Below, one piece after another: positions 2,920 through 41,900 of a stretch of 64,000 bases of DNA. The notes below the pieces were generated by a model. That model saw nothing but the letters and a program-made list of their open reading frames with translations, did no database searches and was not told the origin of the DNA. Where the stretch lies: assembly GCA_977020255.1 (NCBI GenBank), contig CDROCS010000091.1:124001-188000 (forward strand), in the 5' to 3' direction. The stretch's first letter is position 1; the number at the start of each line of letters is the position of its first letter. The stretch is from Obrimoposthia wandeli. Its lineage: Eukaryota. The translations under genes were made by a program, and so were the position numbers.

Positions 2920-5900
2920 CTGTAAATATACATCAGATTTTCAATATATNNNNNNNNNNNNNNNNNNNNNNNNNNNNNNNNNNNNNNNNNNNNNNNNNNN
3001 NNNNNNNNNNNNNNNNNNNNNNNNNNNNNNNNNNNNNNNNNNNNNNNNNNNNNNNNNNNNNNNNNNNNNNNNNNNNNNNNNNNNNNNNNNNNNCCCTCAC
3101 TGATACCCTCACTGTCACTGGCACCCACTCACTCACTCTCATGCATTATTCTAACCTGAATTATCCATTTGAACTCTTTCCAGAAACCTTCTAACTGCAA
3201 TCTCTGGATGGCCAGTCTGCAGGCAATGTACTCTTCCTTCTTTGACAGCGCTTCACATCTGAAAGTAGACAGTCTTCATATTGACTAACGTTATTTTACA
3301 AGGTCATACGATTATCGGGAGAGCTACAATTGAGCGGTCTAAAGTTGACTTCTGCACAGTATCATAATTAAACTTGAAATCTTCAATGAAGTCACAGAAA
3401 ATCTTAGAAGGACTGAAATACTTGCTGTGTCACAGACGTGTTCATGGTATACCCAAAAATATTCATATTTTCCCAATAGACCTCAAATAAAGTACAAAGA
3501 ATTTATTTTAAAGATCGAGAACATAAAAAAGGTTAAATTTTAGTATAAAAAATTATTTAATGTAATAAAGTCTTAACACAGCAAATGATGAATTCAAAGA
3601 AAAATTAACGTGTCTATATTTACTGAAGCAAAATGTTTAAAGAAGGTCAAATTTTGCTTAATGATGATGTTCGTTGTGGACAGCCATTAATTGCAATTAA
3701 TAGTGAACATGATCGGCTCATAAGCAAACTTTTGATATCTTTTCTTATCCCATCAGTTGAAACTGGTGTATCACAAGAGTCAGTTTGCAGGAAATGGGAG
3801 TTTGTCTGACAAGGGTACCGCATCATTTTCCTAAAAAACGAAGAAGACAGCGTTGTGTGAGCACTATCAATAAAGGATTGATTTAGCAAAATTCTGTGAA
3901 TGATGGGCAGCAGAATGTGTTTGAGTCGCCTCTCTTGAAAGAGGACAATATGGCATGGTTACGAAAACCATCCCGCAGGCAATACTGCGATTTTGCGAGG
4001 GTAGCTAAACAAGCAGTCTCAGACTTGAATCAATCCGATGGTTGGCGGTTTGCAATATTGCAAATGGAGCTGAGAAAAGAGAATCAAATACTAGAGAATC
4101 AAAAATACCTTCCAGAAAAGCGGTTCAAGGAAAACCTTTAAACATTGTATTGATCTGATAAATGTTTTAGAAAATTATGTCATAAAATGGAAATGATTTT
4201 GTTGGTCCATGTTCTCTTATATATTTTAATCGTCAAAACGTTTGCAACACCACATACAGATCAAAGAAGTCGGTAATTCTGCTATTGAATCGATCCTTCA
4301 CTTTTCCCGACAATGGATTCGGTTTCAGTTTCCTCTGATTTTGGAGTATGCAGCTAAACATACAGCTAAATATCAAAAGTTAAAGCACAAAAGTCATTCC
4401 TTGATTCACAGTCCTGACTAGAGTGGAGGTCATCAATGGTGTGTTTAAGGATTATTTCCGGTTGCAAACTATCCCAAAGGAATATTGGTTGAAATGAAAT
4501 GTAGACCACCACAGTTGCACAAAGAGTCTGACACCCCAACGGCAGATAACTATCCCAGTACTTTAAGATGAAAAGTAATTAAATGTAATGTTTTCAGATC
4601 AGTTTGTGAAATTTATATTAATTTCCACATAAACTTAAAATACGTTTATGTTATTTATACTACAGTACTTCTCACTCTAATTATTTAACAGGTATAGTTG
4701 CTTTTATGTTTTGTTCACTGTGGAAATTCTTTGTTTGTGTGTATCGTGGATTTATGCGACAATTTAATTTTGTTAGTGGGTTGTTTAATTTTTTGTCAAA
4801 AGATGTTGCCTTTTTGGATTATGATACTGACAGCTTGGCCTATATAGTTTGGTCGATCGAGACAAATAAAGTATTTTCTTAATAAAACAGCTATTAAATT
4901 ATCATGAATTTCAATTGATCGTTGAAACATAGGTTTGCTAGTATATCTGAATAATTTTGTAGAACTAGTGCAGATAAAAAGCTTCAATTGTTTCTTAACA
5001 TTTTCAACGGTCTTTCCATACAAACTAACATTTTAAAGTTTATAAAAATCTTTATCACATTTATTCGTGGCTTGAGACCTTATTTCTGAATTATATTCTA
5101 TATTTTCTGCGAATATCTCGTAGCCTGAGAGAAATTTACTGCTCAATGAATAATTGTTACCACTGCTCCTAAACTAACATACATCTGCAATAATCTCCAA
5201 TGAATAACATAATGACTTTTTGGCGAATGTGTCATTAATTTTTTTAAAATTTTTTTACCAGGAGGACATTTCTTTTCTGGGTAGATCGTCTAAAAAGTCA
5301 TGAAGGTTTTCAGATATTACCAAGTCTACTTCCATAACATAACCATAATCAATATGTTCCATGTCCACATTTTTCATTTCATGCAAGATTTAAGTTAATT
5401 TTATATCATTAAGAATCCATTCAAAATCTCCTTTTGGTAAAGGTTGATCGAGAGCCCATCCATATAAATTATTGACATCTATATATAAAAGACTCGTTTC
5501 TTCATCAGCGACTACATGATGCTTATTGACAAATGTATTTCCTTCACGTATACTAGAAGAAATCATGTTGTACATTTCAGGATCCTGCATCAGTTCAACC
5601 TTATGTTTTAAAGTTTTTGAAGCAATTGCTCAGCTTAACCCAGGAATGCTATCTTTTGATGTGTTTTGTGTGGCCCTGTGGTCTTTGTTGTTTTGATGTG
5701 GCCGTAAGAGACCGGTTACTCGTGACCATTCTAACGATTCGTTCGTTTTCTATGTGTTTTTAAGGAATATAAAAATATACGTCAGTCTTTAAGTTAACTA
5801 AATTATAGTTCGCCATATTTCTACAAGTTTTTTAATTCTCCAAATATCTTGTGCTTTTTGAAATTCAGTGTCTGTGATTTTATCATTCCATTTTTCTGGT

Positions 5901-8900
5901 AAACTTATCTTATTCTGGAGAACATTCAATGAAGTAGCAAAATTATATGGGAATATTCCTTTGCCAGCAATGAGTTCAGATGGAAAAACTGATCTTGTTA
6001 ATGGAATACTTGACAATTTATTGGATAATTCTTTAAAGATGATTGTAAAAATTGCAAAGAATCTATAAATCTCAGAGTTATTTGACCTAATCTTACAATC
6101 ATTGCTTGACATTTTTCTGTCGATTGAGGTATAATATTTATATTTCATTCAGTAAATTTATTCAATGCATGTTTTAAAATATGATGCAAATCATAACCTC
6201 TGAGATTATGAAACACAATTAGTAAAGTTGGACGAAGTTTTCTTAATAAATTACATTCATTGCATGCAGGACCTAGATACTAGATATTCAAGTTTTTATC
6301 TAAAATATTAATATATCGAATAATTGACTGCATATATGCTAATGAAAAATTGTTATTATTTAGATTATAAGTCTCTCAATAATCTGTATTTCTAGTTAAT
6401 GATATTGTTGAAACATTAAATGTATTGAACTAAGAAGATATAACTTTGTATTCCTTACCACCCTGAGATGTAGCTTTGAAAGCAATCAAAATGGACTTTG
6501 GTAAACGATAGTCTCCAAATATTTGATTTTTATTAATTTCCAATGAACCCTGCATCATCATCATACCCGGAGTATTCAAGGTTAGTATACTTGGTATCAA
6601 TACTAAAATTCAAAAGAGTATCGAATATAGCCTTATGAGTATACGTTCCATTACCTCCTTCAATCTTTACATTATTAAATGTTAGAATAACATCTCTAAA
6701 CAAAGTTTGAAACATGTAATTATCTGGAGTTATATCGTTATCTTTCATTAAATCAGAACCATCTTCGTTTACAACTTTTAATTTTATATTTAGCAAAGTA
6801 TTATTCAAATCCAGATAATCTTCTTCAGATGCATGAATAATAAATTCTATGTCATTTAAATTTTCACCAGGAATTGAATTGATTGGAAATATTTCTTCAA
6901 AACTTGAAATTTTAATCACTGCTTGTGGCAATGGTCTATCGAAAATACACAATTCAGATTTCACACTAGCCATTTTAGAAAACAGTACCTTTAAGACGTT
7001 TTTTATACTATTTAAATTATTTCTTTTACGTTTAAGACCATTTACATTTTGTTCAACACAATTTGCGACTTTATTTAAACTCTCAACAGCATTATTTTTT
7101 AAATTTTGGAATTAAAGTTTTGACTTCTTTGACTGTATTTTCTTTGAGAGATGAAATTAAGTTTTTTGGATTTGTTAACGTAGTTCCTATCGTTTCACCA
7201 AGTGCATTGGCAACACTTGTAGCAGCTGATAAACCAGTTTTTTTAATAAATTGAATAGCTAACCTAGAAATAGTTTGAAACCCTCCAGAGCCGTATTGTT
7301 TACCAATAAAATAAGGAAGTTCGCCGACCTGAATACTTTTTCTATAAAAGTTTATAATTGATGTATTCATTTATACTTTACGTAAATGAAAAGTTAAACT
7401 AGTTTTTTCTCCATATGAAAATGGAATTAAATTACCAGAATCATCAAGTATATTTACCTCAATTCTTTTAATACTTGAATCTCTCATTTTCAAGTACATT
7501 GGATTATCAATTTTAACATTTACTACATCTCCATATCGATATTTTAATGATTTTAACCAAATAGACTTTAACAGTGAAACATAATCAGATCCTACTAAGA
7601 CAGAATCTGTTAAACTAGTATAAATATACATTTGATTAAATGAGCTAGAAAGTTTTGGTTCTTTAAAACCCTTTAATTCTTTTCTAAAAGAAAACATTAT
7701 TTAAATCTAATAAAGAAGCACGTTTTTCATAAAATAAAACTGATTTCACATTTTTCTTTAATTCAATATAAAATAATCCGTTTGAATCTATATTTTAAAA
7801 ACCTCTTTGCATTTACTGGCTATAATATTACATAATGAAGAACTATCTTGTATCAAATAATTTTGATCAAATTTCACTTCGTATTCATATTCAGCTAAAG
7901 AATATATTATAATTTTCATTTTAGCATGAAATTTTTTTATCGATATCAACAATTTCATCACTTCTTATATTACATGACTAGAAATTTTTTTGTATTTCAT
8001 TAAAACCTGTAATTTTCGATTCTTCTAAAGTTTCGAATTTCAACAACATGTTAATTGTACTCATTTCTAAATTTGTATCCTTTGTAATTTTGAAATTGAA
8101 AACATTATTTAAATTACTAAAAATTCATTAATTTAAAATTGCAAAAGATACATAAAAAATTTCATATCTATCTTTTCCATTTTATAAAGTATTTTAGAAT
8201 TTTTTTGTATCGTTAAAGGAGTATAATTAAATACAAATTCAAGGCAACCTCCCATTCACCATCTAAATTGAGAGAGTTTTCCCAACCTACAGTAAATTGA
8301 TTGGCTGTATTGTTAGGTTGAGTACTTGGACAACTATTACTAGGTAAAATAATATATTTTGACATTATTCAATTTGAGAAGCGAATATCCAAGGAGGTTC
8401 AGAGTATCCGTACCACTTTGCGTAATATTGTTTATTCTTACCACGACCTTTAGTTTCTAACATTTCTTGTATTCGATTTAATATAGGTTTATCAATTAAT
8501 TGTAACTCTTGTTTATAAAATTTTCTTTTGATGATGACGTTATCAATATCTTTTAAAATATACATTATTGGATTTTGTTTATAATTAATATTATGAATTT
8601 GTAAAACTTCATAACTCCAATTTGGATTAAAATTTTTGATAAATGGACTTGTACGTATTTTTGATATTCGAATATAATCATCAATTTTATATTTGAATTT
8701 AACTTTCTTTTCCTTTGGATTTTGTTTCAACTAAATTTCAAATGCATTTTTATTATTAACATTTACATGTTTTAAACCATCTAAACCTCTATGTTTAGAA
8801 TTATCATAAGCATAAATAATTTTTGGTAATACATTAACCCATTTCTTATTACCTTGTTTAGTAAAATATTTCTTTAACCGTTCTCTTAGCGTTCTATTAA

Positions 8901-11900
8901 ATCTTTCAACTACTGCAGCTTTATATTGAGAATATACCGAATAATGAATGATATTTTCAGTTTTGAATAATTTCTTAACATGTGAATTAAAAAATTCTTT
9001 ACCTTCATCAGTTTGGATATTTACTGGTACATCATCAACGATTAAAGATTCTATTGCATGTAATAAATCAATACCTGATTTTGATTTAACACCAACTGCC
9101 TTGCAAAACGACTAAATACATCAATACAAGTTAAAATATACTTGAATCCTTCATTTACTGAAGAATAAGGAATCATTTCCATTAAATCCATCTGCCATAA
9201 TGAATTAATACCGTTAGTTTTATATGATATAGTAGGGAATTTACGTCTTAAAGGTTTATTCAGACTATTTGATAATTCATTTCTTAACCATTTTTGTGTG
9301 TTTGTTTTTCGTTGTTTGACTCTTTTTGTCAATTTTTATAACCCTGTATATCGGTCTGGATCTTCTGGATTGTTCAAAACCTGTTCCATTGCTGCATGAA
9401 GAATTAAAATTTATAAATAAATTAGACAACTTTGTATTGTTTATTCCAATTTTTATAAAAGTTTAATATATTTTAATCTGTTTATAAGTTTGTATAAAAC
9501 GAAAGTGATGCATAATTTTAACTTCGTGAACTTATAAAACCACCTTTTAAAAATGCTATAACTAGAAAGTATGGCCATTATGAGCACCATTTTGATAGTA
9601 TATTATGTTTCTTTTATTAATTCTACTACTTGAATTTGCCAAATTTATTAATGAATTTTTATATTTTAAAATATTAGGATCAGGTTTAATTTTACCATAA
9701 ATTATTTTATTTAAATTTTTTATTAAATCATCAACTACATAAATTGGAAATGATTTCAACATTTTCATTTTATTCGTTTTTGATACGTCAATTAAGGTTT
9801 TAAAATAAGGTAAACTTTTTGAAAATTCAGTATTATTACGATCATATAATACAGTGTTTATAAATTTTTTAACTTCATTTTTATCTGTCCTTTTACTATG
9901 TTTAAGAATACTCTTTTTAAAATTTATTTTATTTTAAAACTTTATTATTATTTCTTTTGTTTATAAACTGTAATACCATTACGGTTAATTATATCAGTAA
10001 GAATTCTTAAATCGTTAGGACATGATTGAGTAAAATTTAAAAATAAATAACCATGAGGTAAAGATGTAGCATAATGAAACGAATCAATTAAATAACTCTT
10101 GCTATAAGGAAATGCTTGACGAGCAATAAAATCTATCACTGTTTGATCTCTAGAATATTTAAATAAAATAATGTACATTAAGATTATGAGTACGATGATT
10201 TCCTCCTTTATGAAATAAATTTTGTGTTATAAAAATTACAGTAACTTATATATGTCTTGCAATTTTTTGTAAATAAATGATTAAAATCAGATTCTTTGTT
10301 AGCCTCTTGATATAAATCATCAATAACAATTACATCACTTTTTTCAAGTCTTGTAATCCAATTTTGATCAAAACCGTTAATAATCTTAATGTTGTTTATT
10401 TTATTAAATTCTTGGTTTGTTAAACCAGCTTCTCCATCACTACCTTGATGCCAATATATTTTATTAAATTTATTTTTAAACATTTTGGATTTTAATAATT
10501 GACAAACAAATAAAGTTTTTCTTGTACCACTTGAACCTACTACTTGAAAAGTTGAATTGTTAGTTAATAACATTATATATTAATATTAATATAAAATAAA
10601 TATATCAGAATAAGTACATGTTTATAACAAAAACAACATTTTATTAAATATTTATTAAACATCAAAATATTCAGTCACCGTATGAATCCTCCAGATGACA
10701 GTTGTTTCATTCTTCTTATTTATTTTATATCCGAGAATTTTTATTTCGAGCATTAACTTCTTCCATCTTCTTGAATATCCGAAATCTTTGTTCCAGAAAA
10801 TCATAAAATTTGCACTTATCTCCGCGCATAAATATACCCTCATTCTCAAGTTCAACGTCAATCTTCAAATATTTGATGACATCATTGAATTGTTGAATGT
10901 CTTTGTTGTCAAAATCAGAGACTCGGTAATTGTACGAAGTTTTTGATAATGTCACTGGCATAGTCATTGGATGAATCCATGCAAATGTCAGGAAGAACAT
11001 ATCGTACTTGTAATACTTTTGATAAGATAAGAAAACTATAGTAAACACATGCAGGGAATTAAATTCTCGATAGCAATAAGTCAATTTAAATTGAATGTTT
11101 GTATTAGAAATTGTTTCATATTTATATAATTTTTTTTAATGTATGTCATGATATCATTAACTTGATTGTGAAAATATTCACACGCAATGGATTGAAAATA
11201 TTTAATCTTAAGCCTGGGAAAATCTCAGGGTCAAATGAACATGTATTACGTAACACATTCCATAATTTAAATAGATTGATACTTTGATCTAAATTTTCAC
11301 ATACCGTAATTGATTGTATACCAAGTATATTTATTCTTAAAGGGTAAGAAATATTTTTAATAGGTACCTTACATCCCATAATCCTGCATTTTCTATTTCT
11401 AAAAATAAGTATTGTATAATCTTTGGCTTTATAAACGTATTGTTCTGGTCATGTTCGAAATTTTAATTTGGTTACATTATCTAGGCAAATTCCTTTATAA
11501 TTAATATTTGTTAACATTGTAAGTAAAATAATTAAATTTATTGTATTTATATTGTTTTTTTTAATTTAGTATACAAATCAATCAATGTCTCAAAACCAAC
11601 CAAATCAACAGATAAGTAATTACAAAACATATTCAAATTACTGTTCATCGGTAACACATTTTAAGCCTCAAGTATATCATGATATAATGAAAAATTATTA
11701 TAGTTATTCATACAATAGGGTAAATTATTACATATATCCACAATGTTTAAGTACTTAAAATGTTGATTATAACTTATTTTATAGTCGATATGTTAGTCAT
11801 TTAACAGAATATTAAAATGGTGATAAGAAAACATTATTTAAAGTACCAGTTTTAAGCAAAAGAACGTATATATTTAATGAACCAAAAAGCATAGTAATTC

Positions 11901-14900
11901 CAGCTCCTACTCCATCACGAAAATTTAAAATAAATGAAAATATACAGACTAAAATATCGTTAGAAAATAGTTATTCAACGATATCCATGAAAGTAGATCA
12001 TCTCAATCTTGTAAGTCTTAACATTCCAGATGCATTATTAAACGAACTAGAAAAGAATAATACAATTAATGGGAAATGCAAAGATTCAATACATCATTCA
12101 TATATTAAATCCCCAATGTCTCGCTCTCGTATATATCACTAACTACCTTGGGTGATGGGCGAATGTCTCGCTCTCGTATATATCACTAACTACCTCGGAT
12201 GATGGGCGAATGTTTCGCTCTCGTGTATATCACTAACTACCTCAGGTGATGGGCGAATGTCTCGCTCTCATGTATATCACTAACTACCTTGGGTGATGGT
12301 CGAATGTTTCGCTCTCGTGTATATCACTAACTACCTCAGGTGATGGGTGAAAGTCGACGGGTGTTGGATGGAAACACCCACCGACTACCACCCGCCCCTT
12401 TAGGGCGGGCTCTATTCTCACAAAAATAACTACGATGGGTGTTGGTTGAAAATCGATGAGTGTTGGGTGAAAGTCGACGGTTGTTGGGTGAATGTCGATG
12501 GGTGTTGGATGGAAACACCCACCGACCACCACCCGCCCCTTCGGGGCGGGCTCTATTCTCACGAAAATAACTACAAATACATGCGTTACCGTATCAATTT
12601 ACCTCTCACAACTACAAATGTAAACGACCCGTGTCATACCCTAGACCCTAACATAACTGCCTTTTCTATTTTCTGTTTAAGATATTGAAAATCAGGTTTT
12701 TGAATACCTGATAGATAGTAGCTGAACTTTCTTCTTTCAATTGTCACAGGATTTACTAAAGCAATCAGTTGAGCCTTTTTCAAGAATCTGACTTTGTATT
12801 TGAAATATTGTTTCACTTCTTCATACATATCCTTATCCGATTCTTCAAACATTTCTTCGTCATCGCTTAATACCCGTTGGCTATCGTCCATCGTTGATAA
12901 TTGTCTTTGATATGAATGCATTTACTGTGATTTGTCCTCCAATGACGCATTCTTTTATACTAATTTCTAACAAAGACATGAATCTCATTGGTTAATATAA
13001 CTAAAGCATTGAATTTGATTGGACTAAATATATCATCCAATTATAATAGGTTTGCAAGATAATTACAAGAAACGTGCAATAAAAAAGCAGGTTCAGACAT
13101 ATATAAAGAAGATTTTATAGAATACAATTTTAGTCTAATGAAACTCGTAAATATAAATTATAAAGGTAGAACAGAAGATGATGTTTCGTACTTACCATTC
13201 AATGAATGGAAGCCGAGACAATATGTGGAAAGGTTTGATAATTTCACAGTTGTTATTTTTCCTACAGGTTAGTTTTTTTATTTCCATATTGAATTCTTTT
13301 AGGAAATTGTCGTGTTATGGGATGCAAAATACCAATGCTGGGGTTCAATTTACCATTTGGAATTCAAATCACTGCAATACAATCAATCACGATTTCAGCT
13401 AATCTTGGGAAACAGATAAATCTTTTTAAAACTGCAGAGAAAATGAAAGAAGAATGCATGTTTGAACCAGAAATATTTCCTGCTCTCAGTTATTTGAAGT
13501 TTAAAACGCTATGTGTAAATATATTTTCCAGTGGTAAAGTTATGATATTGGGATTGAAATATTTTGATTATCCAAACATTGTTGATTTGATTTTAGAAAA
13601 TATATCTTATTACATCTTGTTATCTTTTTCTATAAACAAACCCGTTTAAACTTATTGTTTCAAATGAATAATGCTATAAAAAGAGACAATGAAGTGGATC
13701 GGCTTGCCGACGAAATATTTTCTGGAAAAATTAGGGGTAAAGAAATTTTATCAGAATTAAAAAATAATGATATAACAAGAGATAACATTGAAATATTGGT
13801 TAGATCACACGTTATTCGAGAATTTAGAAATCGTACACAAATAAATAAAATTATAGCCAAATATTCATTAATTAATTTTTGTATTTCATCTACAATAGCT
13901 CTAACATTGTACATTTCAATAAGGAAACTTCTATGATAATATAAACAATATTAAAAAATGAAAGATTATATGCAATGGAGCTAAATAATAATGCTGCATT
14001 TCAAATAGTTGATCCCAGTGGAAGTGGAAAGACACATTTCGTATGTAAATTGTTGCAAAATGAATCTCTTTTCAAATATAGTTTCAAAAATATTTATTGG
14101 CATCAACGTGGAGGAGGGGAAAGCGGATTAACCAAAACAGAAGTTTGCAAGTTGAAGGGAATACAATTTATTGAAGGATTTGAGGCAAATTGGTGTGAAG
14201 ATTGAAAAAAGAAGATGTAATAATAATTGATGATTTGTATCAGGAAGCTAACAAGGAATCAGACTTTAATAATTTATTTACGAAGATTGCCAGACATCGT
14301 GAAGTAACAGTTATATTTATCACTCAAAATCTTTTTCACCAAGGAGGTCACCATAGAACTAGAAATCTTAATGTGCATTACTTAGTTTTATTTAAAAATC
14401 CTAGAGATCAAACAGTTGTCGATTTCGTGGCCAGACAGGCATTTCCCCAAAATAAGAACTTTTTAGTTGATTCATTTCACGATGCTGCTAAACAAGCACA
14501 TTAGTATATATTTATTGACTTTACACAAGCTTGTTCAGATGATTTACGTGTTTTAACCGACATATTTAATTCTAAGGGAGTAACTGTTTATAAACAAATA
14601 GAGAACAATCATAAAAGATAAATTTATAATGCCTTTTAAGAAGTTGATAGTAAAACGTAAAGCAAAGCCTAAGAAATCAAAAAAAAGAATCATTAAGAAA
14701 AAATAAGTGAAAAAATTAATCAAATCTGTAGTTAGAAATAAAAAAAACTTAAATGGCTTCGAATATAAACAATATTTAAATTGAAATTTTTTTATTAAAA
14801 TGAAGAAAATACAAAGAAGCATACCCTATTTTAAAGCTTTAGTCAAAGACTCTTCTCTTAAGAGAATGATTATTCTTAAAGCATTTCCATCTTTTGTTGT

Positions 14901-17900
14901 AGATGATTTATTGGAAGTTTTGTATAATATAGTTTTGGGTCAAGTAAAAGTTGGAAATCGGAAAAATATATTAAAGAAATATAGAAAAACTCTTCTAGAT
15001 ATTGCTAATGTAAAAAGTAAAAAAGGAAACGAATTATTATTCTTAAACATAATGGTGGTTTCATAGGGGTTGTTATTCCAGTTGTTGCTTCAATTATCAG
15101 TAGTATTATAGCTGCGACACGTTCATAAACAATTATTTATAAAATCAGTTAAAGATATAGGTGCTAACCCTTCTTTACCTAAATTTAAATTATCTTTCTA
15201 TTCAAATTGTTGTAATGGAGAAGATATGGTTCAATCCAAAAGATCCAATTGGCTACACCGGAGTTTCAAAATTACCAAAAAGAACAAAACAAAAATACAA
15301 GAAAACGCAGAAATGTCTGAGCAACTAGTTAGCCTACAGTCTGAACAAGCCGATGAGAAGAAGGTTTCCAACTAGAGCTTACAAAACCAGCGGTCCTAAT
15401 AATTTATGGCAAATGAATTTGATGGAGATGATCCCATATTCTTCCATTAATAAGGGATATCGATATATTTTAACATGTATTGATGTATTTAGCAGGTTTG
15501 CTCGTGCAATTCCAGTTAAAGCAAAGTCTTCAATAGCTATGCTTGAAGCCATTAAAGAAATATTAAAAGAGTACATTCCACAAAATGTGCAAACTGATTT
15601 AGGAAAATAATTTTATAATAAGCAAGTTCAATCTTTATTTAAACAAAATAATATAAATCACTACTCTGTGTTTTCACAGTAGAAAGCAGCAGTAGTAGAA
15701 AGATTTAATCGTACTTTAAGAGATCGAATAAAAAAGTATTTCACAAAAGAAGGAAATAAAAAATGGATCCAAGTTTTACCTAAAATAATACATGCCTATA
15801 ATCACTCGGAACATAGAGGTCGGAACAATATATAGAATATAATTCAGAAATGAGGTCTCAAGCAACACATAAATGTGACAAAGAATTTTATAATCTTAAA
15901 AATGTTAGTTTGTATGGAAAGACCGTTGAAAATGTTAATAAACAATCAAATCTTCGTATTTGCACTAGTGAAAACAAAATTAATCAGATATACCAGCAAA
16001 TCTATGTTTCGACGAACAATTGAAATTCATGATAATTTAATAGCTGTTTCATTAAGAAAAGACTTTATTTGTCTCGATCGACCAAACTATATAGGCCAAG
16101 CTGTACTAGACTTTAGCAAATTATGAATGTAAACTCTTCAGTATTAGGATTTACAAATATATCGTAATTTATTCAATTGTTCAATTAATATAGTTGCCGA
16201 AGATACTGATTCGTTCTTTTTAGAATGCAAATATGTTAATTTAAGAAATCAGTTGTTACCATAAATGATTGCAGATGGAGCATTAGATACGTCAAATTAT
16301 AATGTGAATGATCCATTGTATTCTTATAAATTTAATAGTAAAATAGGTTTATTTAAAGATGAATCAGAATAAAGAATGTATAAAGAATGGATTTTCTTAC
16401 TTTGTAAATGTTATTCACTTAAGTTTGAAGATGACTCTGAAAATATTAAAGCAAAATGAGTAAATCTTAAGGGATCAACGGTTGTACACCAAACATATTT
16501 GGACGTGTATGAAAACGGTAATGCATATACTATACCATAAAAGAAGTTTGGAACAATAAATCATCAATTATACACAATCATAATACAAAAGACTGATCTC
16601 AGCTCATCAGACGACAAACGCTATTGGATCGAGAAAAATAGAAGCCGCGCTTATGGACATTATGAAATTACATAATACATGTGTTTAATTTTGTATTATT
16701 CTCTGACTTCTTTCTTATTTTATATTTTATTTTTCTCCATTGATTATGTAAATTGTATATAAATATATTTATTAATGATATTATTTAATTTTCATTTTTT
16801 ATAGATAATATAAGTTATTTAAAGAAACTTTATCATAATCTTTTAGATGCGCAAGCCTGGGAAAATTTGACCTACATTTTCACATAGCGTAGTTGATTGA
16901 TTACTACAAGTGTGTTGGACAACTATAGATGGTGGTAAGCCTACCTTCAAACCTTCAGTCATAACTAAACCAGACCCTTTCATATATGGTCGACCATAAC
17001 CCCTTGGGTAAGTTGGCCAACCAAAGACGGTCACGACCATACCTTCAAATCTTCATAACCTTTCTGAGCCAGACCCTTATGGTGTGCCATCCTTTAACAT
17101 TGTGTGCACACACAGGGGGTCAAATGTTCTAGACTCCATCCTTCTACCTACTGACCTCGTTGCAACAGAATACGGCATCAGCTAATACAGAGATGCATAT
17201 CCCACAGCAAATACAAATGAGGTATTTAAGTCAATACATCGACATTTTACGTGCACATTATTGCAGGTCAGTAACAATACGGAATCGTGACGGAATTGCA
17301 GCTTGCAGCAACAAAGAACTGGAATCGTGATCAAATCCGACAAACTCGTAAGAATGCCACACAGGGACCGAGACTTGATTAAATGAAAGTAAATTGGCAA
17401 GTATCAATAGTGCAAACCTCGATCAATCAAGGTTTGTTAACGAGTACATCAACATGAAACAGAGGAGGACGGTTAAGGTGGCAAGCGAACATGCAACAAG
17501 CAGTAATCAGTCAATCGGTTAGAAGCCTAACTGAATTTGTCGAACAACTTGATTAACAGTAAATTAAAAGTAAAAGAACTGTAGAGTGTCGTAGAAACGA
17601 ACTAAATGTAACTCTTATAACTATTTTCGAATAGTGTTGTGAAAAACAAAAACTTTTAACTCAAATGCATAAGGACATTTTGTTTTTATACTAACTGCAA
17701 ATTGTAGACTAAGAATTGAGAGCGATAAACAATAGTACACGGCTAAGATTCAACCAGTGAGATACTAACCTAAGCCCTGACACATTCAGAGGGTTATCGT
17801 TGACATTGATTGAGTCCGGCTTGATTTTTGCCTATTCCTGATCTTTACTGTGCCAGACTATGTTTGAATTGAAATCAAATTCGGCCTAACCGGCTTATTT

Positions 17901-20900: not shown

Positions 20901-23900
20901 CTGGACATCAATGAGAACTAAAGCAGTCATTTCTGAAACAATGACCACGCACCGATGGACGGTTGACGATTTACAAACTGGCTCCACAGAAGAAGCTTTG
21001 AGCAAACAAATTAACAATGTTGAATAAAGCTGTACAATCCATAAATTCACTTATTTGGTGGTGAATTTAGGGAGATACAATGAAGTGTAAATAGTAAAAT
21101 TACAAGATTTACTTTCTGTCAATGTACTAAATGGCAAATAGGAAATATTTACCTGAGGTTCAAGTTTCACAGCAGCCCGGATGTACAGCTCCACTGCGCA
21201 GGATATATTACGATCTTCACCAAGCTGGCTGCCATACCAGCTACGATCAGCCATCTTAATGAGACCTGGACATAAGAGTAGTCGAGTAATATAAAAGATA
21301 AGATAAGAAAATATAGACTGCATCAAACTACACCACGCTGCACCACACTACATCAATTTGCACTACGCTGCACCACACTACACCACGCTGCACTACACTA
21401 CATCTATCTGCATCAAACTACACCACGCTGCACCACACTACATCAAACTACACCACGCTACACCAAACTACATCAAACTACACCACGCTGCACCACACTA
21501 CATCAATATGCACCACACTGCACCACGCTGCACCACACTACATCAAACTACACCACGCTGCACCACACTACATCAATCTGCACCACACTGCACCACGCTG
21601 CACCACACTACATCAATCTACATCAAACTGCACCACACTACATCAATCTGCATTAATCTGCACCACACTGCACCACACTGCACCACACTACATCAATCTA
21701 CATCAAACGGCACCACACTACATCAATCTGCATTAATCTGCACCACACTGCACCACACTGCACCACACTACATCAATCTACATCAAACGGCACCACACTA
21801 CATCAATCTGCATTAATCTGCACCACACTGCACCACACTGCACCACACTACATCAATCTACATCAAACTGCACCACGCTGCACCACACTACATCAATCTG
21901 CATCAATCTGCACCACACTACATCAATCTGCATTAATCTGCACCACACTGCACCACACTACATCAATCTACATCAAACTGCACCACACTACATCACACTA
22001 CATCAATCTACATCAAACGGCACCACACTACATCAATCTGCATCAATCTGCATCACTGCACCTCACTTCAATAAAAATTAGAATTAAACTCACTGTATGC
22101 ATGAATAAATGAATCCTCTCGAAGTTGTGTGGAAGCGTTGTAGTGGTACCACTGGCATTCACGTCCTATGAACCGTTTTGCTATTTCCTTAAATAAACAA
22201 TAAAAATATTGTATCCTCAAAATATTTATTTAGCCTTCTCACTACTGTAATGCGCATGTTGCTTGGGTTGTTTAATGCATACTTGCAAGCGAAGACAGTG
22301 AAAGTCATCATTCAAATAAATAAAATAGTGCTGACGAACTTCCCTAAGATTTTTGAATAATCCCTTGAATACTTTCTGTCGATATATGTACAAATAACTT
22401 GAGGGCGGCGACAGTGCTGCACACGAGCCAACAATTGACACTGCATTATATTGCTTAAATGGCACCATAGAAAATCGAACCAAGTACATTCATACCCGGC
22501 GGTGGTCAGTGTCCCACTTACGTAATCCCAAGACAGAAAATTGGGACAATCTGATTGTGTAAAAGATATTGAGCATGTTATGACCTACAATATGATTCAA
22601 TAATTATTAATGCATGCATGGTTGCTGCCTGATCGAAAAAACATCCTGGTCATTATCATGAGGCTCAAGCTCATCATAGTGCAACTTTGCATGATGACTG
22701 TTCAATTCAAATGTTAATTCATACGAACCAATCGGTATCACCAATGACAGCTCGCAGGAATTACGGTTTATAAATAAGCTTCAATTTCAACAACCACAAT
22801 AAGCTCCCGAGTAGCATGATTAAACTGCCTAAAACTGCCTAAAACTGCCTAAAACTGCCGGGTTCCTATCGCCAGAAAAGTGTAATTTAAAGATTCCTTA
22901 TCACAGACAGTGTCAAAGTGGGAACAAGAACCTTCACCAGACAATGGACTATTGTAATCGAACATGGCACTGCAGTCGGACTGAAATGTGCTCAATTGAT
23001 AGACAAATTCGCAAATAAAAAATCACGGTAAAACTCTATGACGGTGATGGACTTTTAATATTATAAATAATTTCTCAATATTTTTGTTCAATTTTGTATG
23101 ATCCTGTTTGGATGAACGGGTTCTGGAGAGGTAACGCTGCTACGTATGATGGTCATAGGTAAAAAGAACAATCAATTAGTTCAAAAAACCGCAAAAGATC
23201 TTTGTAGCGCTTTTCCCATTCCAGTAAACTGTCAGTGTCACAATGTCAATTTATTCAACAAACACTTCAGAATATTCGACTAACTAAACAATCATCAATT
23301 ATGAAAATAATTTTATTTTCCAATCGTCCTGTAAACTCTCTCCTTGCACTAACCCTAACTTTCCTTTCTCACCTACCCATAGTGGAGGATTGGGATTTAC
23401 TCCATTGGAGGTTTAATTCCTTCTCCAAACCATAGCCCACACTTTCGTGGTCCTCAACAGCAAAGACCCCATGACATAGACATGTCACCAAACAAAGGTT
23501 CACTGACCTCAATTCCCGTCACCTTGATGCCCATGCCTCACTTACTGAATGAATCAATGGCCCAGCACAATGCACCAGTACCCACGCTAGATGCTGCTGT
23601 AATTGGTTCCGCAATGCACTTCGTTTTCTCCACTCCACCTTTCCGATTAGGCTGTCATTGGAATTTTCATGAAGGTCGTCTTTTCCTCAACATGGATGTC
23701 GATAGATTCCCAAATGGTCCTGCCATCCTCGCCACTTATCAGTGTCGTCAACTCCCCAAAATTCACCGTTCCATATGGCTCCGCAGCATCACCCCAAACA
23801 TATTCTTCTGAGTTGAACCACACAAACCATCCAGTCTGTTAGTCTCCCCTTTATGGCCACTTTCAAACAGTCCAACTGCTCCCTTGGTCGCAACCTCATT

Positions 23901-32900: not shown

Positions 32901-35900
32901 TCAGCAATAATTCTTCTTTTTTATAGAAATTTAAAAATTGGTCTTAGAAATAATTACAAATCTTTATTTGCAAATCAAATTTTTATTCATTTTTCTGTCG
33001 TAAGTGATATATAAATTTGCAGACACACACGTAAATCGGTATCACTATACAGACATAATCAGTAAAATAACAGGTGTGTGTGTGTGGTGCACTTGAAAAT
33101 TGTCAGACAGGAAAATCAATAGAGGAGGCAGTAATTCCTTCTGTATTATCTCCTACTTCGCAGGCAATAAGCAGAAAATAAAAACCGGTAATCGCTGTAT
33201 AATTTTATTTTCGTTTGACTGTCTCGAATGATAAACTAAAACTTTAAATTGGAATATATCAAGTCCCAACCGATATATTAAAAGAGTTCTACTCGTATTA
33301 TCTAAATTTGATTATAAAATAATATTATCTTCGCTCGAAACAAGAAAGAGAAAATTTCTAGTTGAACATGTTGTCCTATATGGATAGAGGGGATTAGATC
33401 GGACATATCCACCTACGTGCTAAATGACATGTTGTCCTATATGGATAGAGGGGATTAGATCGGACATATCTACCTACGTGCTAAATGACATGTTGTCCTA
33501 TATGGATAGAGGGGATTAGATCGGACATATCCACCTACGTGCTAAATGACATGTTGTCCTATATGGATAGAGGGGATTAGATCGGACATATCTACCTACG
33601 TGCTAAATGACATGTTGTCCTATATGGATAGAGGGGATTAAATCGGACATATCCACCTATGTGCTAAATGACATGTTGTCCTATATGGATAGAGGGGATT
33701 AGATCGGACATATCTACCTACGTGCTAAATGACATGTTGTCCTATATGGATAGAGGGGATTAGATCGGACATATCTACCTACGTGCTAAATGACATGTTG
33801 TCCTATAAGGATAGAGGGGATTAGATCGAACATATCCACTTATGTGCTAAATGACATGTTGTCCTATATGGATAGAGGTGATTAGATCGGACATATCCAC
33901 CTACGTGCTAAATGACATGTTGTCCTATATGGATAGAGGGGATTAGATCGGACATATCCACCTATGTGCTAAATGACATGTTGTCCTATATGGATAGAGG
34001 GGATTAAATCGGACATATCCACCTACGTGCTAAATGACATGTTGTCCTAAGGAGGAGGGACGTAGATTAGACCGAACTGCCACATTGGCTTGGAAAAGAG
34101 AAGGAATGCACCAAGAAATTCCAGGGACGCAGAACAGTCGGAGAATATACCGGAGAATCATACGGACCCCATATGGAAACTGTAGACCATGTCAATGAAT
34201 CAGCATTTTAAAATATCTAACTTGAACTGTTTGAATTTTTGTTGTCTTTGAATGGAGAATAAAGAAGCAAGTACATGTGTTGATGTGTTGACGTGTTGAT
34301 GTGTTGATGTGTTGACGTGTTGACATGTTGATGTGTTGATGTGTTGATGTGTTGATGTGTTGACGTGTTGATGTGTTGATGTGTTGACGTGTTGATGTGT
34401 TGATGTGTTGACATGTTGATGTGTTGATGTGTTGATGTGTTGATGTGTTGATGTGTTGACGTGTTGATGTGTTGATGTGTTGACATGTTGATGTGTTGAT
34501 GTGTTGATGTGCTGATGTGTTGACATGTTGATATGTTGATGTGTTGATGTGTTGATGTGTTGACGTGTTGATGTGTTGATGTGTTGATGTGTTGATGTGT
34601 TGATGTGTTGATGTGTTGATGTGTTGACATGTTGATGTGTTGATGTGTTGATGTGTTGATGTGTTGACGTGTTGATGTGTTGATGTGTTGATGTGTTGAT
34701 GTGTTGACGTGTTGACATGTTGATGTGTTGATGTGTTGATGTGTTGATGTGTTGACGTGTTGATGTGTTGATGTGTTGACGTGTTGATGTGTTGATGTGT
34801 TGACGTGTTGACATGTTGATGTGTTGATGTGTTGATGTGTTGACGTGTTGATGTGTTGATGTGTTGATGTGTTGACATGTTGATGTGTTGATGTGTTGAT
34901 GTGTTGATGTGTTGACATGTTGATGTGTTGACGTGTTGATGTGTTGACGTGTTGATGTGTTGATGTGTTGATGTGCTGATGTGTTGACATGTTGACATGT
35001 TGATGTGTTGATGTGTTGACGTGTTGATGTGTTGACGTATTGACATGTTGATGTGTTGATGTGTTGATGTGTTGACGTGTTGACATGTTGATGTGTTGAT
35101 GTGCTGATGTGTTGACATGTTGACATGTTGATGTGTTGATGTGTTGATGTGTTGATGTGTTGACGTGTTGACGTGTTGATGTGTTGATGTGTTGATGTGT
35201 TGATGTGTTGATGTGTTGATGTGTTGATGTGTTGATGTGTTGATGTGTTGATGTGTTGATGTGTTGATGTGTTGATGTGTTGATGTGTTGATGTGTTGAT
35301 GTGTTGATGTGTTGATGTGTTGACATGTTGATGTGTTGATGTGTTGACGTGTTGATGTGTTGACATGTTGATGTGTTGATGTGTTGATGTGTTGACGTGT
35401 TGATGTGTTGATGTGTTGACGTGTTGATGTGTTGATGTGTTGATGTGTTGACGTGTTGATGTGTTGATGTGCTGATGTGTTGACATGTTGACATGTTGAT
35501 GTGTTGATGTGTTGACGTGTTGATGTATTGATGTGTTGACGTGTTGATGTGTTGATGTGTTGATGTGTTGATGTGTTGATGTGTTGACGTGTTGATGTGT
35601 TGATGTGTTGATGTGCTGATGTGTTGACATGTTGATGTGTTGACGTGTTGATGTGTTGACGTGTTGATGTGTTGATGTGCTGATGTGCTGATGTGCTGAT
35701 GTGCTGATGTGTTGATGTGTTGATGTGTTGATGTGTTGACGTGTTGATGTGTTGATGTGTTGATGTGTTGATGTGTTGATGTGTTGATGTGTTGATGTGC
35801 TGATGTGTTGACATGTTGACATGTTGATGTGTTGATGTGTTGACGTGTTGATGTGTTGACATGTTGATGTGTTGATGTGTTGATGTGTTGACGTGTTGAC

Positions 35901-38900
35901 GTGTTGATGTGTTGATGTGTTGACGTGTTGATGTGTTGATGTTTTGATGTGTTGACTTGTTGATGTGTTGAGAATTACTTGAACTGGAAATCATTTGCCT
36001 CGTTGTTCTAAAATTCTAACAGACGGAGCTTACACATATTGGTCTGCCATTTCTTCTTCTCCGATCTTTGATTTGATGAATATGTCAGAAGAGATAATTG
36101 TTACACAAGAAAGAATATTTAAGGAAAATATGAAAATTGCTGTATTTTATAATAAGTATTTTTATTTCACTTATTTTACTAAAACGTCTCATCAAAAAGT
36201 TCATGTACAGATATTTTTGTTGGGTTAGCGGTTTTAAATCATGGCCTGACTTTTCTAATTGTTTTTATCAAAAATTGTGCTCAACGTTTTCAATCAAAAG
36301 ACAGCATAAAATAAAATGAGATTTACCGCGACCAAAGGCAACACAGCCGAATTCTCAACGGATCCCATTCAACTTATTCTAAGCTGCCGGTTCAGAAGTT
36401 TAGCTGAAGAAGAGACACAGCGAAATCACCACACATTGGGCCCGATAAAGTCAGCCTTGAAAACAGAGTCGAGAATAAATCGAGTTAGCAGAACGACCGT
36501 GAGAAATGGAGACTCGCGACTGTCAGTGAATCCTTCGACAAAAAGCAAGAAGACAGCAAAAGTTCATACTGCAAAGTTATATGAAAATTGTCTTGGTGTA
36601 AAGGAAATTATGAGCGTAAATACTTTTAAGAAAACGTCGAAGGAGGCATACTGAAATGTTCCTGTGCTTATGCATCCCAAAATCATTTAAAGATTGCAAA
36701 TTATTTCCATTCTCCTTATGTATTTTTACTTTAGACTAGATCTACATTTTCCAAAGTCGAGAAGATACTTACTTTCACTTTAAACTTTTTTATGTACTTA
36801 TTATTATGAGTAAACTATTGTTTTATAATTTTATTCAAATTATTTTTATCGATTTATTTTACACAAATGAGATGCATAAAATCTCAATTAACTTTTAGGT
36901 TTAATAGAAACTGTCTGACAATTAAAAAAAAATCAATTCGTCAGCAAATTTTCATAATCATTATATTTGATGGACCGTAGACAAAAATGTTTAAAAGAAT
37001 CATTGTAAGTCTGTCATTTACATTCTCTTTTCGTGGGAGTTTAAGTGGCTATGGATAAAAGAAGGATTAAATAAATCATTAATTTTCAGCTGTTGTACAG
37101 ATTCATCAAAGTTAGTTTTACATATATTAAAACACCTTTACCAACTTTCTTGGAAAGAAGGAATGACATTTTTGCACATTTTCATAGCTATTTTGTGCTT
37201 CAACTCGACAACATTTCTTTAGATCACGAATTGTGTTGGGTTTGTATTGGTGGACCTTCGTCTCCAATTGTTTCAGACAAAACACCTAAAGGGAAGGCCC
37301 AGGAAGACTTATCGGCGGTCATTCAGAACTGAGTCCGAAATTCTCTCACAGCACAGAATTAGGTCCAGGTGCTCCGTCTTGTTTATTTGGAGTGTATTTG
37401 GTTTACTAATGATGACATAAATAATCTCTGGTGCATGACAAAAATAGGTGCTGTTGACATTTTCATCAATAGAGAGAAACATCAAATACATTCCTTTGTG
37501 AGACACTCTTATGTCCACCCACACATGCACACAGGGACTTGAATGGTGACTGATGTGTATGACTAAACATTTCTGTGCCCCTTAACCGACAATTGACACC
37601 ATCCAATCGGAATGTCGACTCATCGGATAATGTTTTCATCGTCATTTATTCTTTCCAACAAATCTTCAATATCACTTTCTCCTCGCCCACAGAAGGTCAC
37701 TCGATTTGGGAAAAATCTATACACCTCCAGTGTTCCTAAATCTTTCACGTACAATGTCCTGATAAACATTCTTTCGTAATATTTTTCATGTTTTCAAGAA
37801 AGGGGCCACAGATATCTGTAATATTGACCAAATGAGAAAAAATAAAACTTTGAACAGTTTCAAATAAATTAATATATCACACGACATTAAATAAATTTAT
37901 TATATCAATCTTTTGTAAGCATTCTGTAATGAAATTCTTTTTCTTTCAAACGATTTTGGAGCTTAATTAGTTCATGAAAATTCAAAAGAAAAACTATATG
38001 GATACCGATAATAAATAGGCTGTTATCTCATCTGTTTGAACACAAAAAATCACTAAGTGATTCCTCGAATGCAAATAGACTCAGATTTATATTGAAACAA
38101 ATTTATTGTCAGCCAATTTCAAATCAAAATTCATAAAAAAGTTAATTTTTAAATATTTGATTTTTTTTACAATTTTTGACCTACGTTTTAAAAACTTTTA
38201 TTGTTCCATTTTCTTCTATTTCACAGTATTGTATTGTCAATGCTTGTTTACACCCACGACCCAAGTTCTGGCTCTAGTAATATATTCCTTTAAAAAGTTA
38301 TAAATGTATCTCCTTAGTTCAAATGAATATTCATAATGAATATTCAGTGTAATTACGGTTAGTAGGACCATATCGATACGTTTACTGGTATCCGTTTTGA
38401 TTTTCTTCTAGAAGATTCGTAAATAAAGTTAGTGTAGTAAAACAAATCTCAAATACACACCAATATTGACATTTCAGCTTAATAAATTCCAAATTAGGCT
38501 ATATTTGACTTTCGCATTTGTTTTATGAGCGTCCTTGCCTGTCTCCAGTTGACCTACTTGAGGGCGACCGCGGGATTTCGGGGAACGCTGGATCCGACCC
38601 CGGTAAGGAGATAGCGCGCGTACATGGCCCCAGAGTGCGGTTGACCTTGAGTTGCTGCCTTCTCGAAGTGACGGAAAGCGAGGATCTGAAATGGATATTG
38701 AGCAAATTGGCAAGCTCTTGAATAAGTATCTGTTGTTAGTAAAATATAATTTGTGTTTGCCTTTTAGTTGATAACTATTTATATTTTGTCCTTTAAAGAA
38801 AGTTTAAAATTTTGTTATTTAAAGATATTAATTCTCATTACATCTAAAATGGGAACACATTTTGCGGGAAGTTTTATTACTTAATTTTAATTTGATGGAA

Positions 38901-41900
38901 AGTGTTGATAAAAGTCATCGTTGTGGTCGTTTATGTGATCTTTCCAAAAGAAGTTGGGGAGATTGGTTTAGAAACGAAGATTGCCATGTGAAAGACGAAG
39001 ATTTAGAAGCATTTCTTGACGAAGACTCATATGAACACTGAATGTTGAATATTCGACTGTAATTAAGCGTTAAAAATAAATGGTTCAAGAACGGGGAAAT
39101 TGAATGTTGCGTGAACACTTGCGAATATTTACTCCGAATTACTGCTGGTGATGAAAAGTTGCTTATTACAGTAATCAAAAGAAAAGAAAATTATGTGTGA
39201 ATCCAACCCAGAATTTGACTTGATGATTGGAGTATTCAAAAGAACCAGATTTACTACCTGAAGATGGAAAAATGTCGTAGCTAGCAACGGGAAACATTTT
39301 GAATAAAGATTTTTCTATTTATTTTTCTATTTATTTTATTATTAGTTTTGTTTATTTTAAAGCGGAGGAAACCCTAACCCAAATTATAAATGTTCAATCT
39401 GCCCAACATTTCAAGGTCTCTTTGATAAAACGTTTGATGTAATTTGGACGTGTTTGTCTCTTTAACTGTAAATGCTTTTTAAATTATCCAAATGTATCGT
39501 TAACATTTAGATTATCTGTATTTCACAAAATTATTATCCCAATATATTCAAATAAATTAAGGGTACAAATTACAGTTTAAAATATGACAATTCAAAGTTG
39601 GAATCATTCAAGGGTCCGTAAATTAAAAAGACAATTAAAAGTTTTGCAAGAAAGCCAAGAAACTTTGATCTATATAACTAGAATTTGTTCTGTTAACTAT
39701 ACTTTTCTTTTTGTGCAACAAATTTTGTAATTTATGTAAAATACTAAAATGTTAAACTTAATTTATTTATATATATGTACTACTTATAAATAAAGGTGAT
39801 ACATGTATATTTTAATTATTAAAAAAATTAAAATTTTGGAAATGCCGATTCCAACTCTGTGACTATATTCCAACCTTTAACCCATTGTTTTATCAGCACA
39901 AAGTAACGTGATTCTGAAAATTATTCAAAATTTATCTATTTCAAATATTTTGTTTATAACCTAATACATGCTAGTAAGAATGATGATATAATTTTATTTA
40001 ATCTGTTAGTTTTGGAATTCTGTCCTTAATAAGTAGGCATTTAACTCGTAAATTCTTAAGGGAGAATGTTTTACTGAAGTGTCTTCCTTGACTCAGTCTT
40101 AACTCTGATGGTTGTCAATTGTACTTCTTCGGTCCTTTGTCTCCTTTTTCGACCCTAATTCTTGGCAATTCAACGTCTTTCTTCTATGAGTGTTTATCTT
40201 GATGATCTGAAGTATTTTGTATGAATTATCGTCTTATTGTCGTGATCCAACTCTTCTGCTGCTTCATTGACTTTTATACGAAATTGGCTCTGCTGTATGT
40301 TGAAGTTGCTGCCTGATGATTTGCTGAATTCGGACTGTTTATATTTTTACTCTATCCACATTTCTTTGCAGACTTTTGTGATTTGCTAGCAGTAGCTACG
40401 TTGCTTTTCCCATTAATCTACAACTCCACTACGCTGAAATTCTACAATAGCATCAATTATTAGTCATTCTCGGGCGACTTCTCAGTCTCAGAGATCACCC
40501 GCGGCCATTTAATCTGTTAATTGACAGTTTCTTATTTTCTATTCAGTTAAAAATGCTATTGACCCCATACCAATGAAGGACAGAAGTTATCGAAAAGCGC
40601 ACATGGGAACATGTTAATCATTTCTGTGGGTATGGAAACATTTAAGCTTATGGTCGGGAATTACAGTTTTAGCAATATGAAAATGACAAGCACAATATAA
40701 AAGCAACGTACTATATATACACTAACATGCACGTATTTGAAAATAGTTTATATTAGAAGTCAGCTATTTCTGTGAAAGATATAAATAAATAACATTATGA
40801 CGCAATCTTTATTAATTTAATTATTTTACAAGACATGCTATTAGAGATATTTCCTTAGTATATTTCCGAGAAATTTGAAAGAAACTGAAATGAGATAAAA
40901 TCGAAATCAACTTCCAGCCGCATAAAAATGAAACCAACTCTATAATGACGGGAATGTCGCCCCCACTGACCTTATCCTTGACTACAACCTGACCCGGAGC
41001 CTCGTGGTAGTACACACCAAGGTTGTACCGCGCATCAGCGTTGCCCAAGGCAGCAGCCTTCTCGTAGTAGGCCAAGGCTTGATGTAGGTTTCTGTACTTG
41101 GTCTCATGTAGCCAACCCAGCGCGGTCAGAGCTCGTGGATCCTGTAAGTGGGTCAGATTGCATTAATATATCTCTGCCGAACAGTGGTTCCAAAATGAAA
41201 ACTTATTAAGCAGTGTATTTCAGTTTGCCGTTTAGGAAGATTCAAATCACTTTCTAAGTCATCCAACTGACCCTGACGTTTCCACGTTTCCTAAACTGTA
41301 TTCGTAATATCATTCGCTATAATAATCTCAGCAGTATCTACCACAGATCAGAATCTTTATAAATTACAAAGTGAATTTTATCAATTAAGTATAAAAATTT
41401 TTAAAATGCCTATTCTAGAAGTAACATTAACATACTGAAGCTAACTTTTGGAAACGGGTACAATAATTTTGAACAAATGTTTACTTTATCAGAGTTGAAA
41501 ATCAGAACGAATGATCATGATCATAGAACGTATCAAATACATCAAAACATGGCAAGGAGTAAAGATTAATTGTTAACTTGAGGCAACAACTCATTCCCTG
41601 TGAAGAACTGATACAATGTAAAATGTCTGTTTGTCAACATGTTTGTGATTTGTCAACGATGTCGTGGCAATCCAATGTCGAGGGCATTCGTCTGTCTCCG
41701 AGATGATCCTTCTACCGTAGAAGTGATAAATGCATCCCACTCGAGCAAAATCTATTCAATCGACGAATATCGTATTTTACGAAATAATGATATTTGTTTT
41801 ATTCAGCTTACCGTTTATATCGAGGGCAACTTTGAACAGTTACCGACAAATATAATTTTTGATGGATTTGTGTTTTCGCTTATTTCATATTTCCCCCTGG

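Follow-up and report, generated by a model that had tools for sequence, protein, structure and literature searches.

Do the capsid genes of Polintons answer to a transcription factor that these elements encode themselves? The question is raised by a 64,000-nucleotide (nt) stretch of DNA from Obrimoposthia wandeli (assembly GCA_977020255.1, contig CDROCS010000091.1, positions 124,001 to 188,000, forward strand), here called the window, with positions counted from its first letter. It holds two Polinton copies, each with a gene resembling the one that encodes TATA-binding protein (TBP). As described below, both are TBP-fold genes, they belong to a family that is linked to Polintons across a whole lineage, and a shared box precedes most packaging and capsid-block genes of the same elements. 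In our judgement, this Polinton 'mini-TBP' is probably the element's own late promoter factor.

TBP-like genes in two nested Polinton families

The TBP-resembling open reading frames (ORFs) that a first-pass annotation had reported in both copies exist, with similarities beyond chance, and turn out to be only the C-terminal parts of the following genes, shown here with their upstream elements:

11146..11517, minus strand: TBP-like gene of the family A copy, intron-free, ATG at 11517, broken in this copy
11544..11551, minus strand: canonical TATA box (predicted early promoter) upstream of the TBP gene in copy A
13100..13108, plus strand: canonical TATA box upstream of the copy B TBP gene
13138..13267, plus strand: first exon of the family B TBP-like gene, which holds the strands of the N-lobe (43 codons plus 1 nt) and starts with ATG 13138
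13268..13302, plus strand: 35-nt GT..AG phase-1 insert, predicted spliceosomal intron, which gives an in-frame stop codon if unspliced
13303..13649, plus strand: TBP-like gene of family B, exon 2, end of the N-lobe and complete C-lobe with the EPE stirrup

The copy B ORF (13293-13646, +) matches the Pfam TBP family with E = 7.3e-12 (45.4 bits) and TBPs in the PDB from E = 3e-12, and the copy A ORF (11149-11448, -) matches Pfam TBP with E = 4.5e-6 (26.9 bits); both exceed the curated cut-off of PF00352 (22.9 bits), in matches that cover the C-lobe only. Of the two saddle repeats read by the first-pass annotation, one is thus evident from sequence and the other, the N-lobe, from the fold. The peptide it quoted as common to both copies (FEPEIFPAL...IFSSGKVMILG) occurs in copy B only, and the two divergent copies are not one duplicated element but members of two distinct high-copy families, A and B, with ~70% DNA identity over the ATPase gene. 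They are nested, a family B fragment (12115-15821) interrupting the polymerase gene of the family A copy. Both TBP genes sit in decayed elements: that of copy A has an in-frame stop (11449-11451) and a small 3' deletion near 11165 which truncates its end. Among 27 family A loci that share its start and were chosen by similarity to its TBP protein, 18 hold an open frame of at least 145 amino acids (aa).

Predicted structures of one uninterrupted homologue and one natural family A copy (pLDDT 92.6 and 95.7) match TBP over both lobes, as had been proposed, in Foldseek, with E values near 1e-9 and a TMq of 0.6-0.74 across 157-201 columns, as well as in VIA (Z 10.4-12.3; the match with Z 12.3 spans 149/157 residues at a root-mean-square deviation of 3.5). 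They consist of about ten strands and of helices in the C-lobe only; neither has a helix in its first ~80 residues, so that the canonical pattern of two helices per lobe is missing from the N-lobe. Residues were compared in 63 representatives from 50% clustering (120 closer homologues were also aligned), with TBP numbering assigned from a motif alignment that is least sure in the N-lobe stirrup and with DNA contacts as listed in Table 1 of PMC12529657. The equivalents of F116, F190 and F207 are kept in 61, 63 and 63 of these proteins, and the predicted TFIIB-binding glutamates of the C-lobe stirrup, E186 and E188, in 61 each. Several other positions of the DNA face carry new residues: V122 is replaced by Arg (61/63), T124 by Met and L205 by Asn (both 63/63), V71 by Asn (56/63) and N159 by Ser (59/63), and the V161, I194 and V203 positions are fixed as Thr, Arg and Cys. 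In place of the canonical four phenylalanines with a hydrophobic minor-groove face, the family presents a face with several polar positions. According to PMC7221094, the EPE glutamates contact TFIIB, helix 2 (H2) of the N-lobe contacts regulators, and viral TBPs usually diverge at both surfaces. Judged by alignment and models, the Polinton family keeps the putative TFIIB contacts and deletes the regulator surface of the N-lobe.

In both families the TBP gene heads the ATPase-integrase-capsid block, just as inferred from the window. In family A (ten copies of each family were read for gene order) pPolB is divergent and is followed by TBP, an ORF termed Y, the ATPase, a small ORF and the integrase, then by a putative minor capsid gene, a core-type ORF, a putative major capsid gene, a putative protease gene and one further ORF; in family B, X and Y are divergent, TBP is followed by a 90-aa ORF, the ATPase and then the block of family A, and pPolB is convergent. 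Core genes of Polintons are recognizable in sister copies (DNA_pol_B_2, E = 7e-19; rve, E = 4e-11; Pox_A32, E = 5e-6), and homologues from metagenomes match Peptidase_C5 (E = 8e-4) and a double-jelly-roll (DJR)-like profile (E = 0.039), both below cut-off. The capsid labels rest on gene order and this weak DJR match; a profile of the major capsid protein (MCP) found no match in the PDB.

The linkage of TBP to Polintons, which might have been a peculiarity of this locus, extends to thousands of genomic copies, to capsid-selected elements and to unrelated metagenome contigs. The genome (1.35 Gb, AT-rich, with its own intron-bearing TBP and TRF-like genes) contains at least 6,120 copies of family B (6,109 + 11) and at least 1,977 of family A, counted as exact junction patterns and hence as lower bounds. 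Family B copies are young, since exon 2 has a median identity of 97% (300 pairs from 25 copies), and 33 of 39 copies picked regardless of coding state have an ATPase motif inside their 1.4-kb stretch (a fortieth stretch, L197, missed its junction and was left out). When ten elements were drawn from 98 scored capsid-gene matches to span length classes, nine carried TBP upstream of the ATPase/integrase block, in four further families here named D, E, F and G, and the remaining element is a 5'-truncated family B copy. Beyond this genome, 25 of 36 metagenome loci encode members of the family, 14 of these 25 hold some gene in common with the window elements, and three short contigs (L088, L090, L092) also carry Polinton core genes. 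A protein search over lengths of 24-340 aa gave 452 matches from 1,587 candidates, and the 120 best matches are all 131-194 aa long. A second one, against representatives at 50% identity, gave 57 clusters with E values up to 1e-30. Scans of viral contigs with the TBP alignment, MCP, the ATPase alignment and the MCP alignment found no relatives, and a phage collection gave no match.

A second tier of divergent TBP-like proteins of 170-220 aa was also noted (P0209, P0214, P0220, P0232, P0244, P0255, P0266), which share the FRxMG / ELFPAL / VNVF signature of the mini form and keep spacers of helix length in the N-lobe; they are possibly intermediate between TBP and the mini form.

In a rough tree, a branch with 99/97 support separates cellular TBPs, including that of the host, from the Polinton proteins, which do not group with host or other cellular TBP or TRF; bootstrap values in this tree are not settled, its sequences are partial and no named TBP of a nucleocytoplasmic large DNA virus (NCLDV) is among its rows. 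The best sequence matches of the Polinton TBP are archaeal TBPs, which may reflect divergence only. As to the host genes themselves, the TBP coding sequence occurs twice, inverted, within ~2 kb at one locus (L137/L138, G000:C238:871792-873996), and two near-identical intron-free TRF-like genes lie on C60 and C1092.

The insert in the family B gene has the features of a spliceosomal intron, i.e. GT..AG ends, a restored frame and a conserved position. All 6,120 family B junction matches carry it and none is insert-free; it is 34-40 nt long, ends in GT..AG in 38 of 39 copies and leaves the exons in register. Inserts of different sequence occupy the same codon and phase in families B, E, F and G, and A and D have none. 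Family G shows clean GT-AG ends, as does B, and the donor region is degenerate in the single copy read of each of E and F. Among 150 listed representatives, 13 start at a Met just past the insert point, as expected of a gene caller that meets an intron or a fragment. The host TBP gene has an intron of 48 nt. By its sequence features, the 35-40-nt insert is likely to be a spliceosomal intron. Its history might involve a single gain or repeated gains: the tree, which fits either, requires three changes, only one of which is forced by starred branches. At one family B locus (L153, G000:C2335:184112-184162) the exon ends are adjacent and a short rearranged repeat replaces the usual insert, possibly a product of repair.

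A box upstream of late-type genes

A shared motif upstream of capsid genes, which the first-pass annotation had suggested looking for, exists and separates late-type from early-type genes. Upstream regions of most packaging and capsid-block genes contain (T)ATAAACAA. Each late block of family A or B has 8-9 such sites in sense orientation, as compared with about one in dinucleotide shuffles (40 shuffles, maximum 3), and none on its antisense strand. Metagenome contig L090 contains ATAAACAA six times, against 0.8 in shuffles, and three stretches of the window outside the elements have sense-strand counts within the shuffle range. In the window, 11 of 19 TATAAACA sites fall in 8510-14771, including the following:

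13631..13638, plus strand: TATAAACA box before the 90-aa ORF
13940..13947, plus strand: TATAAACA box before the family B packaging ATPase
14764..14771, plus strand: TATAAACA box preceding the ORF next after the family B ATPase
10619..10626, minus strand: TATAAACA box before the family A packaging ATPase
9958..9965, minus strand: TATAAACA box preceding the ORF next after the family A ATPase
9479..9486, minus strand: TATAAACA box upstream of the family A integrase

Across nine lineages, ATAAACA lies 25-120 nt upstream of 43 of 50 late-type starts and 25-60 nt upstream of 32 of them, as compared with 5.2% at random places, the mode being 32-45 nt before the ATG. Starts of TBP, pPolB and Y behave differently: none of 17 has ATAAACA at 25-60 nt and nine have a canonical TATA box, the figures for TBP genes alone being 0/9 and 6/9. 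The site before the MCP gene reads ATA AAC in all eight lineages, although AAC makes up only 13-32% of Asn codons, and the site before the core gene lies inside coding DNA in four lineages and is intergenic in three that have lost the coding site. This use of a minority codon and this turnover of sites suggest that it is the DNA rather than the overlapping protein that is conserved at the box. Its odd base, the C at position 7, presumably lies on the half of the box that is read by the N-lobe of TBP, and the N-lobe is also the remodelled lobe.

A probable late promoter factor and competing explanations

Fold, general linkage and upstream box thus support the proposal of the first-pass annotation that a virus-encoded late-gene transcription factor has been retained across this lineage, the late function being a prediction from the nature of the genes behind the box. 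If so, the TBP gene would be transcribed early by the host machinery, including host TBP, from its ordinary TATA box, and in families with the intron its transcript would be spliced. The viral TBP would then probably read the TATAAACAA box upstream of late genes via its remodelled face and recruit host TFIIB and RNA polymerase II through the retained EPE stirrup, while the loss of the N-lobe helices would let it escape the host regulators TFIIA, TAF1 and Mot1. Taken together, this would be a two-step cascade in a clade of animal Polintons, in which the smallest known viral TBP serves as a one-protein specificity switch. It would recognize TATAAACAA, rely on the TFIIB and polymerase II of the host, be blind to the regulators of host TBP and be controlled in turn by a very short intron of host type. 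For this composite picture we see an even chance.

Several points weigh against this reading. It has been built from sequence and models. Herpesviral TBPs (vTBPs) depend on several viral partner proteins, and no such partner was identified for the Polinton protein. Only three of the four kinking phenylalanines are kept, the F99 position not being aromatic. Shared family B variants have pN/pS values of 0.23-0.62 against 0.56-0.72 for singletons, with small counts, which makes for a weak case of selection on both exons. Starts were placed by script and the labels 'late' and 'early' come from gene function; moreover, the 50 late-type starts are not independent, because the families are related. 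The box also precedes the integrase in four of seven lineages as well as accessory ORFs and is therefore not strictly a capsid signal, and ATAAACA is the Forkhead consensus as well. Finally, what is claimed for the late box and the TBP gene is co-occurrence and not mutual dependence, in a set of elements that offered no TBP-less Polinton as a control.

The box could thus be read by host factors, i.e. by host TBP tolerating C at position 7 or by a Forkhead protein, with the viral TBP acting as a general booster of element promoters, as an autoregulator or as a binder of termini in replication or packaging. The box is a single base away from a canonical TATA sequence and equals the Forkhead core; the host has TBP and TRF-like genes of its own, the viral contigs offer no TBP-less relatives for comparison, and entry 1qn3 is, by its title, a solved complex of TBP and a TATA variant with C(-25). 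Strict sense orientation and a modal spacing of 32-45 nt before the ATG, however, fit a core promoter better than an enhancer site, the TBP gene itself avoids the box in favour of canonical TATA, and the protein's DNA face is invariant and yet non-canonical. We regard host readers as rather unlikely. Even less probable, in our view, is a decoy or dominant-negative protein that binds TFIIB or host promoters and dampens host transcription or antiviral genes. The retention of the TFIIB glutamates in 61 of 63 proteins alongside the loss of one kinking Phe and both N-lobe helices would suit such a role, but a decoy needs no invariant new residues across its DNA face and leaves a dedicated box before the late block unexplained.

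We consider it very improbable that the gene rides along as a passenger of host origin, or that it is dead in family B with the 35-nt insert as the disruption. Decay of both elements in the window would be in keeping with this, as would an insert (35-39 nt) shorter than the 48-nt intron of host TBP and the degenerate donors of E and F, each seen in a single copy. A passenger would nevertheless hardly have 452 homologues of which the best 120 all fall into a narrow size range with the same invariant residues, nor be separated from cellular TBPs, including the host's, by the 99/97 branch. A disruption, in turn, is at odds with GT..AG ends in nearly all copies read, with length variation that keeps the exons in register, with different sequences at the same codon and phase in four families and with the lack of any insert-free copy among the family B junction matches.

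Known systems and neighbouring features

Compared with cellular TBPs (PF00352; 1mp9, 1cdw, 1ytb), the Polinton protein has the same two-lobe saddle (149-153 residues aligned) and equivalents of F116, F190, P191, F207, N69 and the E-P-E stirrup. It differs in its size of ~150 instead of ~180 aa, in its identity of 20-25%, in the absence of the N-lobe helices, in the loss of F99 and in the other residues fixed at the V71, V122, T124, N159, V161, I194, V203 and L205 positions. Similar in its presumed mode of action is ORF24 of the herpesvirus KSHV, a beta/gamma-herpesvirus vTBP. As described in PMC12529657, it is a viral TBP mimic for late genes that uses host polymerase II, a variant TATA box (TATT) and a polar-rich DNA face, being polar at V122, V161 and L205 as well. 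According to the same source, ORF24 has 752 aa in several domains, works within a complex of six proteins and is modelled, to go by a section heading, as TFIIB-incompatible, whereas the Polinton protein amounts to no more than a small saddle, has no partner found so far and keeps the TFIIB glutamates. The distribution of ATAAACA is that of a herpes-type, late-specific variant TATA box, with 'late' taken from gene function. In Pfam scans of the elements there was no TFIIB-like neighbour, and with 131-194 aa the best 120 homologues are not of the large multidomain herpes type. By analogy, then, the Polinton mini-TBP would work like a herpes vTBP and is not a member of that type.

NCLDVs and poxviruses bring their own RNA polymerase, and neither an RNA polymerase nor a TFIIB gene was seen in the Polinton elements. 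Matches to viral proteins in BFVD (Foldseek) have E values of 2e-7 and weaker. The TBP-like proteins of NCLDVs and poxviruses share a virus-encoded TBP fold and the loss of the N-lobe regulator surface, but often come with their own TFIIB and have diverged in the TFIIB-binding residues, where the Polinton protein keeps the glutamates (PMC7221094). Animal Mavericks/Polintons (adintoviruses) resemble the window elements in pPolB, a chromodomain rve integrase, an A32 ATPase, a putative adenain-like protease, putative capsids and possible inverted ends; PMC8097293 describes eight intronless core genes for the vertebrate set and states that virions of vertebrate Mavericks have not been observed. 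In the window elements, this set is extended by the TBP gene, by the late box and by an intron-like insert. That TBP lies outside the described gene set of Polintons holds in the literature checked, save for one label: the legend to figure 5 of Starrett et al. (2021, PMC8502044) assigns 'TBP' to a gene of a MELD virus with adintovirus-like PolB, and the available passages of that paper give the label only, without a family, promoter box or intron. Neither TBP nor TATA is mentioned in the full text of PMC8097293, PMC10748475, PMC11131425 or 10.1101/2024.03.18.585575, nor TATA in 10.64898/2026.06.19.733378; a search for Maverick capsid transposons with TBP, which left Repbase and most subscription journals outside, returned only Starrett et al. 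(2021) and the preprint of that paper.

A dedicated factor and a matching box would provide a direct handle on the timing of Polinton capsid genes. If our reading is correct, Polintons switch on their late genes in the manner of certain far larger DNA viruses, start sites can be predicted from the box, and expression of the factor marks when and where elements enter the late phase. A 150-aa TBP of altered specificity with its TFIIB surface retained would, in addition, amount to an orthogonal promoter system provided by nature, and the more than 8,000 copies of its gene in this genome might affect host promoters that contain the same box.

Other genes of the two elements in the window are:

13975..14618, plus strand: A32-like packaging ATPase of family B, frameshifted here
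9957..10573, minus strand: A32-like packaging ATPase of family A, broken here
15215..15821, plus strand: rve integrase of family B, truncated
6286..9389, minus strand: family A integrase, putative minor capsid gene, small core-type ORF and putative major capsid gene, decayed
11585..12098, plus strand: 5' part of the pPolB gene of family A, which faces TBP head-to-head and is interrupted by the family B fragment
15827-16732 and 4830-6281: further pieces of family A pPolB
13664-13936, plus strand: 90-aa ORF of family B, between the TBP gene and the ATPase
12634..12921, minus strand: ORF Y of family B, divergent from TBP
10725-11000: ORF Y homologue of family A, next after TBP

Both copies have been rearranged. 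In 12115-12655, repeats that belong to the opposite end of family B (tandem units of 47 bp and GC-rich ones) directly abut ORF Y, and the B fragment is therefore internally rearranged; the same 47-bp units are amplified ~20-fold in L003. The outer pieces of family A pPolB flank the nest on both sides (4830-6281, 15827-16732), overlapping and in opposite orientation, so that copy A must be partly inverted or duplicated. As candidates for terminal inverted repeats, inverted matches of 580-715 nt flank copies of families A and G and matches of only 56-97 nt were found in four of five family B pairs; a near-perfect hairpin lies at one family B end (L038:7700-7800).

In most lineages ORF Y is a direct neighbour of TBP, as it is in six contigs from metagenomes (L081, L083-85, L087, L091), and family B has two paralogues of this type, X and Y. 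A role of ORF Y as a TFIIB-like partner was considered and found unsupported: Pfam was uninformative, and a weak Atlas lead (score 0.85, a lead only) points to poxvirus I3-like single-stranded-DNA-binding proteins.

Elsewhere in the window, 46562-64000 (+) is a giant region resembling a long-terminal-repeat retroelement, with a gag zinc knuckle, BIR and RING domains, two aspartyl proteases, a reverse transcriptase and a Monjiviricetes-type fusion glycoprotein (E = 1e-79); the element resembles the Burro elements of planarians. Long simple tandem repeats at 34118-36015 and 21282-22112 (an 8-bp unit; CACCA-type) give rise to spurious long ORFs, and 40821-42958 (-) holds exons of a host gene with SEL1-like repeats.

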